Of a stretch of DNA of 64,000 nt, positions 31,105 to 49,424 are shown piece by piece. Source of the DNA: Bigelowiella natans CCMP2755 (taxonomy: Eukaryota; Protista; Cercozoa). Within the stretch, counting starts at the first letter, position 1, and every line of letters begins with the position of its first letter. A model generated the notes under the pieces. The model ran no database searches. It was given only the letters and a program-made list of their open reading frames with translations, and was not told the DNA's origin. The position numbers and the translations under genes are program-made. The DNA lies in contig ADNK01000855.1 of assembly GCA_000320545.1 (NCBI GenBank), positions 1 to 64,000 of the forward strand, read 5' to 3'.

Positions 31105-34150
<3,046 letters not shown>

Positions 34151-42151: not shown

Positions 42152-42946
42152 CCGTCAGGAAAGCATCATATCTGTACATATTCGGAACAAGGTCTAAATA
42201 TCAATGATTATCAAATAAAAGCATGTTCAAAAACACGACATTGCTAGATTGTGCTCGCGCGCGTCTAGCGCGAGTGTGGGCTAGCTGCGAATAAATGTAG
42301 CACACCATCTCTAGATCTGATCTAGCTTATGGTCTTCGGTCATGGCTGCATTTGTCGACCTTGCTCGCTAGCTGGTGCACGCTAGCTACACGTAAGCTCA
42401 CTAGCTCATCACGATGCTATTCGCTGCGCACTACACTAGTACAGACTGGCAGAGCAGACAGACATCGATGAGTCAAGACTAGCTAACACTAGAAGATGCA
42501 GCCCACTAGCTAGCTAGCCCTTCATCCGAGCCACCGCGATCGGCAATGCACAGCATGATGCCTTTAGCTAGCTATAGCGCTCTAGCTAATGTAGTGCTGC
42601 TTGCTAGCTTGGTGGTTAGGGTTGCTGCTGTTGTAGGGAAAGTGTGAGGCAGATCGGCGCTCTAGCGCTGCTAGGCAAAGCGATGTGAGCCATGCTATGT
42701 GTAGCCAAAGCAAGGAGGGTGATGTCGTTGTGAAGATTGAAGTTTGAAGGTTACTCATGCGCGCACATGCACATGCCAACGTACACCAGAGTGTGGCCAC
42801 AATAATAGTATATATGATATTACATGTCTATAATCACATCTAGACATATTCAACATTCATTTACGAGCATTGGAGGTATTGTCCCAATGTGCATATGCAT
42901 ATTCGTTATTTCACTTGTGTTTCGCTATGCTAGAATGGTCAAAATA

Positions 42947-43448
42947 TCATGGACTACGAATGAAGTCTTCAGACTCAGGATCGTATCCCACTTGCTCTTG
43001 GGCGATACCAAGCGTTCTTAGCAGCTCTCCCATGCCACCCTGCTGACAGTGTCCCCTCTCCTGGCTCTTGGCAAGAAGATTCTCCATAATATCTTGCACA
43101 GCCTATTTTTATCGATAGTGCATTTACACCAAAAGTTTTTGAATTGTGGTGAGTGTGGAGCTGAGATGTCGGAATGGTGATTAACATGATGCAGTGACAG
43201 CGTGCATATACTAACTAGCCGGGTGTTGTGTAGTACCGATTTCCATTTTCGGGCTAACCGTTCGATTTCCTCCGTCTATTTGTTTTGGTCGAAGCCATTG
43301 TGTGCGCACAGGGGTTAGTGGGAGGAGGTAAGATTGTCTTATCGTTGTTACAACTACTCGATATTCTTGGAAGGAAAGTAGAGCAGGGATGGAATAATAA
43401 TAGTGCAGCGCGAGTTACAGTAATAGGCACCGCCAACAAACACGCACA

Positions 43449-43530
<82 letters not shown>

Positions 43531-45442
43531 GAGAAAGGGAACATAAATGCACATTCGTAGCAGCAGATTCGCTGCAACATGCTCGACCTCTTCCAAGGGA
43601 GGCAGTTTGGCATCTCCGAGGGAATCTTTAAGACGAGCAAGTTTGAAATCGATGATGTTTGCCATTCTTGAGAAGGGCGTCAGTGGCGTGACGTCCTCCT
43701 CCCCCCCTGCCTCCATCACCCTTCTCCGTTGACTACTTCGTCGTAGGCTACGCCGTGCTCTCGCTCCCCGTAGAATCGTCTGACTCTTCTTCTTCTTCTT
43801 TTCCTTTGAACAGTAGCTGCTGCTCCTTGGTCTCCTCCTGTGGTTTTCCCGGTTCATCCTCGCAGCCCGGATAGCGAGCGCTCTCTCTTTGTTGCGCCGG
43901 GTCCTGTCCGTTTGGGAGCACGACATCTGCGACGATTTAGAATTCTCCACTGCCAAACTGCTACTACCCTCAGCTTCGTTGTCATCTTGAGGAGCGTTTT
44001 CAAGCTGGTTACAGCTTCCTCCTCTTCCTCCTACTTCCCTCTTCGTCGCTACCACCGTCCACAGTATGGAAATTGGCCTGCGCGTGTCGTGGTTAAACAC
44101 AGTTGCATTGATCTGTCCCTCACGCTCCAGGCACTCCAACGCTTCTAGCACCTGAGGAGGAAGCAGAGGGGAGACGCGGGGAATAAGTATTCAATTTATA
44201 GATGAAAGCAATGATTGATTTTTAGTCATGCCTGCTCCTGAGAGGCTCCAACAGTAGCCTGTGAGCACGAGGAGACAGCAGACCGAGCGGTGACGATGCT
44301 GTGCACCATGGAAGCAGCATGGTCACCGTTCTGATCTGTACAAGCACTTGCACCGGCGCGCTCCTCCTTCTTCTTCACTAACAGTTTGAGATAGGTATTG
44401 AGGGACATGCGAGGGGGGGGGACTGTATGCGGATCCTCGTTGCCGTTGCTGTTGCCGCTCGACGTTGCTCCTGATTCTACGGGTTTATTCTCGTCAGATA
44501 TTTCCCGCTGGTTCTTTGGTCGCCCTTTCTTCTTCTTTTCCTCACCTGCTGCGTCATCAGTATCATCACCATCAGCATCACCAGCAGCAGTGTCGTCATT
44601 CTGTCTGAGCCACTTTCGGATTTTTCTCAGTAAAGCGGCGATCGCCTTGCCGCTGACGACCGGAGACATGACAAAGTGTGTCCTGTCTTCGACAAAGCTG
44701 TGAGAGAAAAATCAGCAGAAGATGCATAGAGTTGGAGGATGGGGAGGAGGAGGAAGAGGAGTAGGAGCATGGAAAAAGATGTACACAAAGTCAGATCTCA
44801 TTGGCACTCGCCTCCATATATCCACAACAACCTCCCTCCCCTCCCAACCCACCCTATGCTGAGGAGCAGATCCAGAGCGCCAGCTATCCCTTCAAATTTT
44901 TTCATTACATACGGTACCCTTAACTTCCGGTACCTGTTAACAAAGGGTAGGAAAGAAATGGGGTGATGCAATACTTCCCGAGAAGGATGACCATTGAGTT
45001 TAAAACATAGAGTACGACGGGCAGGATATCAACTTCATCACCATTGCTATTCTTATCATCATTCATCAATCATTTCAAGTGCTTCGGCATAGTTATCTCC
45101 GAAACCGACTCCGGTCGGTTTTGCCCCCCCACTAGGTACCTTCTGGTCCGGGGATGTTTGACGATGTTAACCATGACAGTCTGGATGAACTTCATTGCTC
45201 TCCGCTTTTGCAAGATGGAACAGCCTCCATCCCCACGTTCTTCACCCTTCAAACCATCGCTGCTCTCGCTATTCTTCCAAATTATTAGAGAGCGGACAAC
45301 GTCCGGGTCGGGCGAGTCGTCTTGCGTTCCGTCGTCGCTTGAAGCCTTGGGTGCTTTCGTTGGCATCGTCGTTTTTCTCCCTTGTTTATCCTCTTCACCG
45401 GGTGCTACTCTCTTCGGCCGAGAAGATAATGATAATGATGAT

Positions 45443-45473
<31 letters not shown>

Positions 45474-47173
45474 TGGTGGTGGTTTTCTCCCCTCTCCTTC
45501 GAGAAGTTGAACCAGCAGAGGGACAGCTTGATTTAAGATTTGCTACCTTGGAAAGCATCAGCGGGGAGGAGGAGGAGGAGGAAGCTCCCCCACCGACACC
45601 AGCAGCTACAGCTCTCTTCGACTTCTTTCCCATCTTACGGCGATTCTGATTCACAGCAGGTGACATAGTCGTGGTGGTGATGCCTTCTCCATTTGTGAAT
45701 GCTGTCGCTCCCTTACACCGTTTGCCGCAACGTCTGCTCGACGCTTGTTTTTTGGTACCATTGCGTATGCCCCTAGGTTTCTTAAAGACTTTACCTTCCG
45801 GAGGAGACATCACGATTGTTTCACTGAGAGCTTGCGTGTTCTGTTCTGAGGCAGTCGTCAGCACAGAGAGCAGAGGTGATCGTGATGTGTCAACTTTTCC
45901 ATCTTGTCTTAGCAACTTTGAGGAATGCTGTGGATTTTCATCATGAGATGACGTGGGTTTCTGGGACTGGGCGACGTTCTTCAGGGCTAACCCCAAAGGA
46001 TTCGTATTCTCAGCATTTTCACCGTTACCCTTCTTACTGGTTACGCCCGTAGAAAACCAGTGTTTGCGAGCTGATGACGATGTCGTAGCTGATTTTCTAG
46101 TCTTTTTCCGCTTCGGCGTGCTCTTTTTTGCCGACCGCGATTTTACGGAAAGTTTTTGTGAGTATTCTGCGTTACAAAGTAGGACGGGAAAGAAAATAAG
46201 AACATAGAGATTCTCTAGATCGGTAGTAATGGGCCTAGTATGCACAACCTTCAGGATTTTGTAGTCTCTTGAAGTCGCGGAGAATGATTCTAAGACACAG
46301 TTTATTAACAAATTTTAGCGCAGCACAAGCATCGTTTGAAATTTACGACGTTACGTTTTCACAGGTTGCAGTGGTCGCTCTGTTTGAGCCGGTAGCAGTG
46401 TGATATCAAATTCAGTGCTAATATAAAAATCAGAACGCAAATAGAAATACATCAGTTGGAATATAATATCATATTTCTGTTCGTCACCCATCGAGGTCTA
46501 TTGTTTGTTCCTTGCCCTTGTAGCTTCCCTTATAGCTGAGAAAAAGGCGACGCAAAAGTAAGTTGATGTTCAAAAAAATGCCGTTTAAAGTTGTCAACCT
46601 AACAGTGATTATTCGGCCATCCACTACTTTGACATCAGCGTCACATCCTTTTCTCTCGTCTCGAAGATTCCATTCAACCCTGATCTGCATTCCTGGGTGG
46701 ACCCCGACCCCGTTAAGAACGCTCTTTTTCAAAATTTCTTCATGTGCCTCTCGATCACTTTCTGAAAAAAAAAAAAAATCACTCGGGAGAGTCCTAGAAT
46801 TGTAAATTAGAATTCATTACCTTCAAGAATACAGCCAGCTTCGTTATCCTCTTCTTTCGCCTGAACAAACGCAAGGATCAGAAAAGTAGCAATGTAGAAC
46901 CATCTGTAAAATGCTTCGTACGGTATAGTAGAGCTGAATGGCGTCGATATAATCGTTGCTCGCTTTTGCAAGGAAGTAGCGAAGGAGCGACAAGTCAGCT
47001 TTTTCTGATAGGAGATACCACTCAGCACTCGTTCAAGAAAACTTTCTAACCTTTTTCAAAATAAAATCCGGCAAATCGAAATTGCCACCTCCCACAAAGC
47101 CTTTCATTTTCTGCAACAAGCCCTCTTCCTTCCGTGAAGTTTTCCTCCGTTTGGATCGATGATGCGCCTCCAT
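42947..47173 (-). CDS. Multidomain protein: UBA-like + PUB-like + RPA32C-binding-like motif + Sfr1/Mei5 C-terminal domain
   Basis: UBA-like: LLQKMKGFVGEKADLSLLRYFLAKASNDYIDAIQLYY. PUB-like: FIQTVMVNIVKHPRTRRYRKLRV...IAGALDLLLSIGF. RPA-type motif: SQTDRTRRNKERALAIRAAR. Terminal exons: TEEIERLARKWKSAVQDIMENL...MGELLRTLGIAQEQVGYDPESEDFIRSP*. Confidence 0.7.
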
Positions 47174-47823
47174 CGGAATGAAGCCGAAGTTGGAGGGAAG
47201 CTATTCCCCTCGCATTTAGAAATTGCAGATTTTGTTGGACATTTCATAGTTGCGACATCATAATAAGCTCAGATTTAGATTCCGTACAAAACAAAGGGAA
47301 TATTTCCCATTCTGGACCCACTCGGACGTCGGATGCATAAAATCAGCTCCTGCCAGTTTCACGCTTGAATTGTCTTATGCGACAATATAACATGAGTGAC
47401 TCACAGGCAGATTCACGAAGGTTTTAAGCGTTTCTAAGGGTTGATGCGATTTCAACACCTGACAATTGTATAGTTTCAAAGTACGACAGACGAGTTCCAT
47501 TGTCGTAGTTCAGGAATTAAATGGTTTTCACTTCTGCGGAAACTTCCCAAAATAGACCCTCCTCTGCGCTTCCCTGAACGAACATTCTCGGACGGTGGTA
47601 AGTGAACCAAGGGGAGAAGAAGGGAAATAGAGATAATGGGATCATGGCATCGGCAGCAATCTGATATGTGTGTTCAAACTTATGAGGCAGAAAAAAGTAT
47701 TTTTTCGAGCGATTAAACTAATGGATTGATGCGATGTAGGTGATTGGGAGATATTTGAGGTCAAAGACGAAACTGCTTCTCCAACTTTATTCGGAAAAAT
47801 AAGCTTTAACGTAACGAGGTAGT

Positions 47824-49424
47824 ATGGACGATCAGCTAAGACGCGCTATTGAAGCAAGTAAACAAACTGCACAGCAGGAAAAGCAGTCAAGGCAAAGAGA
47901 TACTCTCTTGCAGCAGGCACTTGCTGCCTCAAAGGCTGAGGAGGAGAGGCGGAAAGCCGAAATCGCCCGGCAAGCACAAGCACGCGAAAGAAAGGTCACC
48001 GGTAACGCGCAAATGAGCGAGGAAGAGCAGATGCGGCTCGCCATTGAGGCTTCGAAGAAGGAAGAAGAACGCCGGAAGGCTTTGTCCAATAACGATGAGG
48101 CACTCAAGCTTGCAATTGAGAATTCCAAAAAGACAGCCAAGGAAGAAGAAGATCGACGCCGACAGGAGGAACAAGAACTTAACTTCGCTCTGCAGCTCTC
48201 GGCGGCATTGTATCGAGCTAGCAACGTTAGCCGTCAGCTCCACGACCAAAAGGGGCCAGTTCAAGGACATATTCAGAAGGAATACGCTGTCCCTGTTGTT
48301 CCTGGGACGCTCGACGTCAATCTTATTGAGGCACAGGGGCTGCCCAACATGAAGACAGGAATGAACCGCATGAAACCCTACGTAGTGCTCCGTGTCATGT
48401 CCATCGCGCCAGTGGGTATTCTCAATCTTACGATCCATAAGGCCGAGGGATTGCGAAAAATACAGATGATCGGCCAGCAAGATCCCTACGCCATCGTCAC
48501 GCTCGATGGGCGGCGGAAAGCCACTACTAAGGTCCACTATGATTCGGGTCGCACACCGGTATGGGAGGAGAAGAAAACTGTGACGCTCACGGGCAAGGAG
48601 AAGTCGGGCTCCATCGAGATCCAGATCTGGAACAAGAACATGATGTCAGACGAGCGCATTGGGTATTAGTACATCATCAAATTTGAGTAGGCTATGTAGT
48701 ATAAAGCTGGAGTTGTATTGAGTTACTTTGTAGCGATTCGGCTGGTTGGTCGTTCGTTGTATGAATGCCCCAGTCTCTCATCTTTCCTTCTTGATTAATG
48801 GCTATGCAGATACGCGTACCTCGACGTGGCCGATGTCTTGTCCCCCAGTAAGAAGAAGTGGCTAAGGGTAAATCGGAAGAAGGGAAAGCATCACAGCAGC
48901 AGCCTCGATGGCAAAGTTTGCGTGTCCTGGGATTTCCAGGCGCACTGTGCACCCTCCTTCAAACCCCTGAAGGTTGTAAACGAATTCACGTGCGAAGAGA
49001 GAGGAGGGAGGAACAGGCAGCACCGTGAATATTTTTAACTACTGCACTGAATGAAAAAAGGGAATGCCAGAACATTTGGTCCTACCTTCTACCACTATTG
49101 AATTATATCAACCCGTACCAAAATGCACATAATAATAATAGGTGCTCGAATCTAAGACAGGATACGTCGGGGGCCCAGATCCCAAGTGGGAGAATACCCT
49201 GACGGTCAAGGACATGGTGTCCAATTGCTACGTGCAGGCGACCCTCCGCAACAAGAAGACGTTCGGTACCGACACGATTCTGGCCATCTCCAACGTTATC
49301 TCCGTGCAGGGCGCTATTCACCAGAACTTCTTCACAAAGGGAAAGAACACTTGGTATTTAGCAGTAGTAGCAGCAGTAGTAGTCATGGAATATCTTACAC
49401 AGTAGAAGTAGTAGTAGTAGTAGT

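Follow-up and report, generated by a model that had tools for sequence, protein, structure and literature searches.

Can a single protein combine an Sfr1/Mei5-type recombinase subunit with its own means of finding single-stranded DNA (ssDNA) coated by RPA? This question is raised by a gene on the minus strand of a 64,000-nucleotide stretch of Bigelowiella natans CCMP2755 (assembly GCA_000320545.1, contig ADNK01000855.1, positions 1 to 64,000; the window). A first-pass annotation, made from the sequence alone, had read positions 42947-47173 as an Sfr1/Mei5-like recombination mediator fused to UBA-like, PUB and RPA-binding modules, and had proposed that it couples ubiquitin recognition and p97 extraction to recombinase loading. 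We consider it moderately likely that the product of the gene is the Sfr1/Mei5-type subunit in a recombinase helper resembling Swi5-Sfr1, with an RPA tether built into the chain.

We assembled the coding span (42947-47173) from RNA joints, the stop-free frame and two transcript-derived proteins, P0001 and P0002. It consisted of 13 exons: exons 1-5 at 47173-47089, 47004-46922, 46860-46821, 46761-46599 and 46535-46488; exons 6-10 at 46417-46355, 46289-46249, 46166-45140, 44933-44853 and 44697-44232; and exons 11-13 at 44151-43588, 43275-43237 and 43102-42947. The joined exons gave 2856 nucleotides (nt) and 951 amino acids (aa) with zero internal stops. Eleven introns were GT-AG and one, of 80 nt (44152-44231, ends GCATGA..CCTCAG), was GC-AG. 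Seven of 24 runs were compared with the locus, X1, X3, X6, X9, X15 and X16 as contigs and X22 as raw reads; the runs carried no RNA label on record, yet they were taken as cDNA because their contig joints were spliced. All 12 introns were spliced in each of X1, X3 and X6 (three studies), and the introns of the 3' half were joined at 5/5 places in X9 and X16 and at 4/5 in X15; the GC-AG intron was spliced in 6/6 contig runs. The PUB exon was connected with the last exon on single spliced contigs in X6 (1776 nt), X9 (1574 nt) and X16 (1727 nt), and the part from exon 1 to 45489 was covered by 1281- and 1280-nt records of X3 and X6. These RNA contigs all broke off where (TCC)n is repeated, at 45419-45488; this repeat lies within the open 1027-nt exon and was skipped by the contig-alignment tool. 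The thin raw-read run X22 (127 reads) contributed one read across the exon 11-12 joint. A poly(A) loose end was found at 42813 (four reads, X22), RNA cover extended upstream to 47315, and transcripts were found in runs from seven studies.

P0001 was identical to model residues 442-951 (0 differences). The allelic P0002 ran from Met1 through the (TCC)n repeat to residue 887 with five substitutions and two one-residue gaps; its 3253-nt contig must be spliced because this length is too short for the unspliced form. P0005 comprised the last 50 residues on a contig also of 3253 nt, likely the same one. A fully spliced single record from start codon to tail was not seen in the compared RNA records. 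Nevertheless, the contig joints, the stop-free frame and P0001/P0002 support one transcript well; that is, one spliced gene with one 951-aa product. The RNA joints bore out the single transcript with its GC-AG intron and, with P0001/P0002, ruled out two separate transcripts, the case that the first-pass annotation had set against itself. The four features that it had placed on the minus strand were also found at those places: the UBA-like domain (47134-46846), the PUB domain (45201-44613), the basic helix (43914-43849) and the last exons (43275-43237 and 43102-42947). An alternative intron 1 (donor 47050), as in the public model Bigna1/87038 (P0003), was contradicted by the RNA joints. P0003 belongs to the P0001 cluster; compared with the RNA joints, its exons 1-3 are mis-spliced, and the UBA helices are therefore lost, its Ser-rich exon is partly cut, and its 39-nt KWK exon is skipped, so that any Sfr1 likeness would be hidden. 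As a separate observation, X15 differed within 43861-44646 at four substituted positions and lacked 3 nt at 43989, which marks another allele or strain; the residue at the deletion was missing also in P0002 and P0004.

We then asked how far this architecture is shared. HMMER with the last 102 residues against 1.84 billion representative proteins gave three matches at E <= 0.001, namely P0001, a P0001 fragment and P0006 (678 aa, E 7.7e-8, 40%). P0006 carried its modules in the identical order (first the UBA, then the small beta module, PUB and the helix, with the tail last), and its three close variants came from contigs no longer than 53 kb. P0006-P0009 shared the architecture with B. natans at ~30% identity overall and 30-42% within domains, with unalignable linkers. 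The UBA_4 (residues 7-46) and PUB (272-331) matches of P0006 were both above their Pfam cut-offs. Pairwise comparison with P0006 gave E 3e-9 for the UBA and beta module, E 2e-17 for PUB and E 3e-15 for the tail. In the shuffle test, the UBA, beta module, PUB and tail each scored 0/500, which points to selection on each of the four; the linkers were not above chance. The linkers have diverged beyond recognition while the module order is kept; therefore, the fusion would be old.

A whole-length two-family profile (A1, B. natans and P0006) was compared with 177,635 PDB sequences at E <= 10. It gave seven matches, i.e., four PNGase PUB domains, the UBXD1 PUB domain, S. pombe Sfr1 and a SMARCAL1 peptide. 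All seven belonged to families that the first-pass annotation had named before testing, and no unrelated sequence was among them. P0006 alone gave 0 matches in the PDB. Word-index homologue searches returned only alleles of the same gene (2/2200, 2/482 and 1/73 candidates), and they say little on range because all three missed P0006. In scans of DNA collections, the locus was found in 0/266 and 0/183 pattern matches from metagenome contigs, 0/51 from prokaryote genomes and 0/8 from viral contigs. Single-exon Pfam scans of nine frames of the gene gave nothing relevant, and NCBIfam gave 0 families.

The Sfr1/Mei5-like C-terminal region comprised residues ~861-948 (42959-43668). In the tail, 31/77 residues (~40%) were identical to P0006. 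KWK lies at residues 897-899 (43248-43240) of the B. natans protein and is kept in P0006. A KWR/K motif is described as conserved in the otherwise poorly conserved Sfr1/Mei5 family (bioRxiv 2024.04.25.591189). S. pombe Sfr1 (3VIQ_A) was matched by profile A1 at E 0.31 and by profile A3 at E 0.30; its alignment fell into two places, the KWK helix and the terminal stretch Met-x-x-x-Leu..Gly..Asp..Phe. The best Atlas scores were to SFR1/PF10376 clusters (0.83 and 0.81), with 7/10 best matches in one family; these scores were used as a lead only. P0006 residues 617-642 gave a weak match to Pfam Mei5_like (PF17021; E 0.19, 12.2 bits vs a cut-off of 32). The isolated tail gave no Sfr1 match in the PDB. 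The single-sequence model of P0001, with a predicted local distance difference test (pLDDT) score of 45-66, placed helices at 417-437, 448-474 and 482-496 of P0001. A fold search with this low-confidence model gave nothing at E <= 0.001, and a second search with it gave a best Z of 5.3 to unrelated helices, with Sfr1 not among the matches listed. A SAP-domain likeness of residues 864-897 (2KVU, E 0.85) was dropped; it was weak and overlapped the helix leading to KWK. Motif patterns that were drawn up with the sequence already in view (0.2-0.9%, 0/20,000 shuffles) were not counted. In our judgement, the tail is very probably homologous to Sfr1/Mei5.

The second element is a basic amphipathic helix at residues 779-800 (43849-43914), modelled at pLDDT ~65, of the type by which SMARCAL1 and TIPIN bind the C-terminal domain of RPA32 (RPA32C). 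A 34-column profile of the B. natans and P0006 helices (A4), compared with the same PDB set, gave only two matches, the SMARCAL1 peptide 4MQV_B (E 0.0037) and TIPIN 192-217 (E 0.28). The whole-length profile A1 also matched the SMARCAL1 peptide (E 0.94). 4MQV is described as the SMARCAL1 peptide in complex with RPA32C (PMC11387677). The P0006 helix was the closer match; B. natans has Thr in place of the Ile of P0006, SMARCAL1 and TIPIN. These matches agree with the RPA-binding helix claimed in the first-pass annotation, and RPA32C binding is predicted. Alternatively, the helix could be a basic recombinase- or DNA-binding site, as in the Sfr1 N-terminus.

Several results weigh against an Sfr1-type subunit with an RPA tether. 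The 3VIQ_A match is weak (E ~0.3), Atlas scores below 0.9 are in the range reached by a third of shuffled proteins, and Pfam PF10376 (Mei5) was unmatched by P0001, by the isolated tail and by P0006 (its filters drop weak matches). The first-pass annotation had staked its tail assignment on a Mei5/Sfr1 profile match, and the outcome was divided: 3VIQ_A was matched and PF10376 was not, so that the KWK, the Sfr1 alignment and the Atlas scores speak for the assignment and Pfam against it. Named Sfr1 was absent from the three HMMER matches, and all profiles rest on two independent sequences only. For the helix, residues 770-805 alone gave 0 PDB matches, and SMARCAL1 was not listed by profile A3. 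The XPA basic spacing, which PMC9407234 gives together with RAD52 as one of the RPA32C-signature proteins, was present at 5/6 places, but also in 56% of shuffles. The likeness of the B. natans helix to that of P0006 was marginal (20/500 and 48/2000 shuffles).

Swi5 is reported to be bound via the C-terminal half of Sfr1, and Swi5-Sfr1 to stabilise Rad51/Dmc1 filaments (PMC5573924). We postulate that the tail would pair with a Swi5/Sae3 partner and stabilise Rad51 or Dmc1 filaments, whereas the helix would dock on RPA32C and so place the complex on RPA-coated ssDNA at breaks or stalled forks. Placing recombinase on RPA-coated ssDNA is the job of Rad52 in yeast. The basic disordered parts may bind recombinase or DNA, as the Sfr1 N-terminus does; the UBA and beta module may read ubiquitin or chromatin marks near damage; and PUB would more likely bind a partner other than the p97 tail. 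Mei5-Sae3 is reported to aid Dmc1 onto RPA-coated ssDNA, via Dmc1 contacts in that study (PMC11514449).

The presence of the tail in the product depends on splicing of intron 11 (43276-43587), which is 312 nt long, contains (CT)n and (GT)n repeats and, as seen from intronic contig pieces and P0002, is often retained. This retention, overlooked by the first-pass annotation, was seen in 4/6 contig runs (X1, X3, X6 and X15), with none among the pieces listed for X9 and X16. Contig depths of the retained and spliced forms were 51 vs 55.6 in X1, 12.4 vs 11.9 in X3, 11.1 vs 12.2 in X15 and 5 vs 9.8 in X6, taken from the pieces listed and a poor measure of isoform abundance. P0002 runs into intron 11 and represents the retained form. 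Retention would yield 964 aa lacking both KWK and tail, with a stop ~117 nt before the last junction; because of this position, the tail-less form is plausibly subject to decay. Intron 8 was retained less (X1 14.1, X9 2.4). Noisy splicing is discussed for B. natans (PMC6142364).

The PUB domain (residues ~497-572, 44613-45201) was identified by Pfam, by PNGase PUB alignment and in P0006. Pfam PUB (PF09409) scored 30.5 bits (E 3.5e-7), below the 34.3 cut-off, and P0006 scored 34.8 bits, above it; the PNGase PUB match had E 0.0013. The claim of a PUB domain was thus upheld. It was the best conserved domain between the homologues (33/78 identical), and its pocket for the p97 tail was altered. In the PNGase alignment, Val505 replaces Tyr38 and Tyr525 replaces Asn58, and the equivalents of Asn41, Tyr51 and Arg55 are kept, with a basic residue at 50 and 55. 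P0006 has Val at both the Tyr38 and the Asn58 position. Consequently, the pocket motifs YxxN(x)9Y and K/RxxN given by PMC6995525, which calls the first essential, are broken, reading VxxN(x)9Y and RxxY here and VxxN(x)9Y and KxxV in P0006. For the matching residues of UBXD1, that report gives the largest affinity losses (Y181A 14 -> 111 uM, N201A 5-fold), and it describes SPATA2-PUB, with Val for this Tyr, as binding CYLD instead of a PUB-interacting motif (PIM). We take PUB to be under selection, with a partner that is more likely other than the p97 tail.

These results bear on the possibility that the protein is a true p97/Cdc48 adaptor, in which the UBA would bind ubiquitylated RPA or recombinase and PUB the p97 tail, coupling extraction to recombinase loading. 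The pairing of UBA and PUB is one of p97 cofactors (PMC5389986), PUB, conserved better than any other domain, keeps Asn41, Tyr51 and the basic residues 50 and 55, and a divergent pocket could conceivably compensate for the changed residues. The basic helix is moreover a near miss for the VCP-interacting motif (VIM), for which PMC5389986 gives the p97-binding consensus Rx2h3AAx2Rh with a pivotal last Arg; the last position is Asn799, and the Arg lies one residue further in B. natans. However, neither homologue has an equivalent of Tyr38 or of Asn58, positions at which UBXD1 loses most affinity and SPATA2-PUB, with its Val, binds no PIM (PMC6995525). A p97 adaptor is therefore unlikely, and because Tyr38 and Asn58 are changed in both homologues, p97 extraction is the weakest step of the first-pass annotation and found no support.

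A wider proposal would unite all modules in an algal all-in-one mediator. Here, one chain with an Sfr1 subunit, an RPA32C tether, one reader for ubiquitin and one for chromatin, and a PUB domain recruiting p97 or a deubiquitinase would find RPA-coated DNA, clear or edit ubiquitylated RPA and stabilise the recombinase filament, and retention of intron 11 would switch the tail off. We regard this proposal as doubtful.

At the N-terminus, the UBA-like three-helix domain (residues 14-61, 46846-47134) was identified by the model, Foldseek, VIA and the UBA_4 match of P0006 (29.4 bits vs a cut-off of 21.8). Its three model helices had pLDDT 66-76. Foldseek matched the EDD UBA (probability 0.96, root-mean-square deviation (rmsd) 1.1 over 42 columns, E 1.4), and VIA gave Z 7.1 to the Dcn1 UBA (rmsd 1.4, 45 aligned) and to the EF-Ts N-domain, and 6.7 to the TDP2 UBA. 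A Z of ~7 is modest, and because the EF-Ts and Sec14 N-domains tie with the true UBAs of Dcn1 and TDP2, ubiquitin binding does not follow from the fold. The UBA-like fold itself, as annotated, was supported. A small conserved beta-strand module, absent from the feature list of the first-pass annotation, occupied residues ~90-147 (46396-46702), with 16/46 residues identical to P0006 (0/500 shuffles). It was modelled as three strands at pLDDT ~28. Its Foldseek matches were weak chromo-barrel, Tudor and MBT rows mixed with PH domains (all E > 0.5), the best Atlas match was 0.77 to KIF2A-like_1st (1/10 matches agreed), and profile A2 gave no Tudor match. A Tudor/chromo-barrel-like fold of this module is a lead only.

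These two modules might make the protein a specialist resembling fission-yeast Swi2, in which the beta module and UBA steer the Sfr1-type tail to particular loci rather than to general repair. Swi2 is described as having an Sfr1 C-terminus and acting only at heterochromatic mating-type loci (PMC5573924, PMC2954829), and the weak chromo-barrel/Tudor rows would suit this role. However, a Tudor/chromo-barrel fold of the beta module is only a lead, a tether to RPA would be better suited to ssDNA in general, the HMMER search (which is blind to very distant paralogues) gave no second Sfr1-like one, and transcripts in runs of seven studies do not suggest a rare stage. We consider such a specialist very unlikely. 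Another alternative is a scaffold for forks or the damage response that is bound to RPA and has a tail with only a likeness to Sfr1, or one that has lost its pairing with Swi5, as the missing Pfam Mei5 match, the fork-protein type of the RPA helix (SMARCAL1/TIPIN) and the common tail-less isoform would suggest. We consider it likewise very improbable; the tail shows 40% identity across the distant homologues, keeps KWK and ends where Sfr1 ends, both of its parts align to 3VIQ_A, four independent weak tests favor Sfr1/Mei5, and the species is reported to splice noisily (PMC6142364).

The proposed Sfr1/Mei5-type subunit with an RPA tether was compared with known systems. Like Sfr1/Mei5 (PF10376, PF17021; PDB 3VIQ), it has a KWR/K helix, behind which the protein ends in a short helical tail, and a long basic disordered region upstream. 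Sfr1/Mei5 proteins have ~220-300 aa and N-termini described as disordered, whereas the present protein has 951 aa (P0006, 678 aa) and contains three folded modules (UBA-like, beta and PUB) as well as a helix of the RPA32C type, and the Pfam cut-offs of the family are unreached. S. pombe Swi2 is similar in that its Sfr1-type C-terminus is preceded by a long N-terminal part with a possible role in chromatin targeting; it is not known to have a UBA, PUB or RPA helix. PMC2954829 reports Swi2 in fission yeast only. The RPA32C helices of SMARCAL1, TIPIN, XPA, UNG2, RAD52 and NEIL1 are likewise basic, amphipathic and in a disordered region, whereas here the helix lies within an Sfr1-like protein, with Thr for Ile in the B. 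natans copy. The PUB domain shares Asn41, Tyr51, the GF motif and the UBA-like pairing with the PUB domains of the cofactors PNGase, UBXD1 and HOIP and of SPATA2; unlike PNGase, UBXD1 and HOIP, both pocket motifs are broken, with Tyr-to-Val as in SPATA2, and no UBX or catalytic domain is present.

All parts are known modules, and what is new within these searches is their conserved combination on an Sfr1-like chain. This combination was undescribed in the literature searched, which left subscription papers mostly outside, and none of the literature matches listed concerned Mei5, Sae3 or DMC1 in Bigelowiella or its group. Work on Swi5-Sfr1 has concerned fungi and vertebrates, and a 2017 review takes its sequences from these two groups (PMC5573924). 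Conservation of a multi-domain form between a rhizarian alga and a distant relative would widen the Sfr1 family, whose members may escape notice through the 39-nt exon and Pfam filters. The fusion is a hint of a working link between Swi5-Sfr1 and both RPA32C and ubiquitin signals. With this protein one can test directly if Swi5-Sfr1 becomes a loader of the Rad52 kind once it is tethered to RPA, and its PUB domain is a second natural case of the Tyr-to-Val change.

The remaining parts of the protein lie between the modules. Residues 176-445 (45355-46164) form a basic Ser-rich low-complexity region that includes the (TCC)n repeat; its 270 aa contain 53 K+R, 14 D+E and 53 Ser, and it gave no alignment to P0006 above shuffles (407/500). 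Sfr1 N-termini are described as disordered, basic, variable and recombinase-binding (PMC7093153, PMC2954829). Within the region, FKKPR (residues 302-306, 45772-45786) is a candidate F-x-x-P recombinase-binding motif and a lead only. It is the longest word common with the matching P0006 region and the sole F..P in both, and is not above chance (487/3000 shuffles share a 5-mer). The F-x-x-P recombinase-binding pattern is reported in bioRxiv 10.64898/2026.07.24.740592 and 10.1101/2023.10.05.561053 and in PMC11436757, with human motifs of the form F-x-P-P; the first of these describes the pattern as very common. Residues 641-733 (44050-44408) form a helix-helix-helix-hairpin stretch of low-confidence helices, winged-helix-like by eye only. 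A winged helix here and at P0006 455-535 was rejected because the likeness between the two was not above shuffles (79/500; 706/2000 anchored); residues 641-733 gave no match in the PDB. The winged-helix-like look directly precedes the RPA-type helix in both proteins.

Head-to-head with the gene, a neighbour on the plus strand (47545-48669) encodes a C2 domain (Pfam E 3.7e-18) along with repeats of the ubiquitin-interacting motif (UIM; Pfam E 9e-9), with a 5' intron near 47597-47738. A shared promoter at ~47350-47535 is likely because the 5' ends of both genes are ~250 nt apart. Downstream of the gene, 42200-42850 is a GCTAGC/GCAT-rich patch, and loose ends at 42846 (X16, X22) suggest a short repeat common to other loci. 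Farther away on the plus strand, ~32190-34150 contains exons that, recognised by eye from the frames, we take to be of Hsp70 type.

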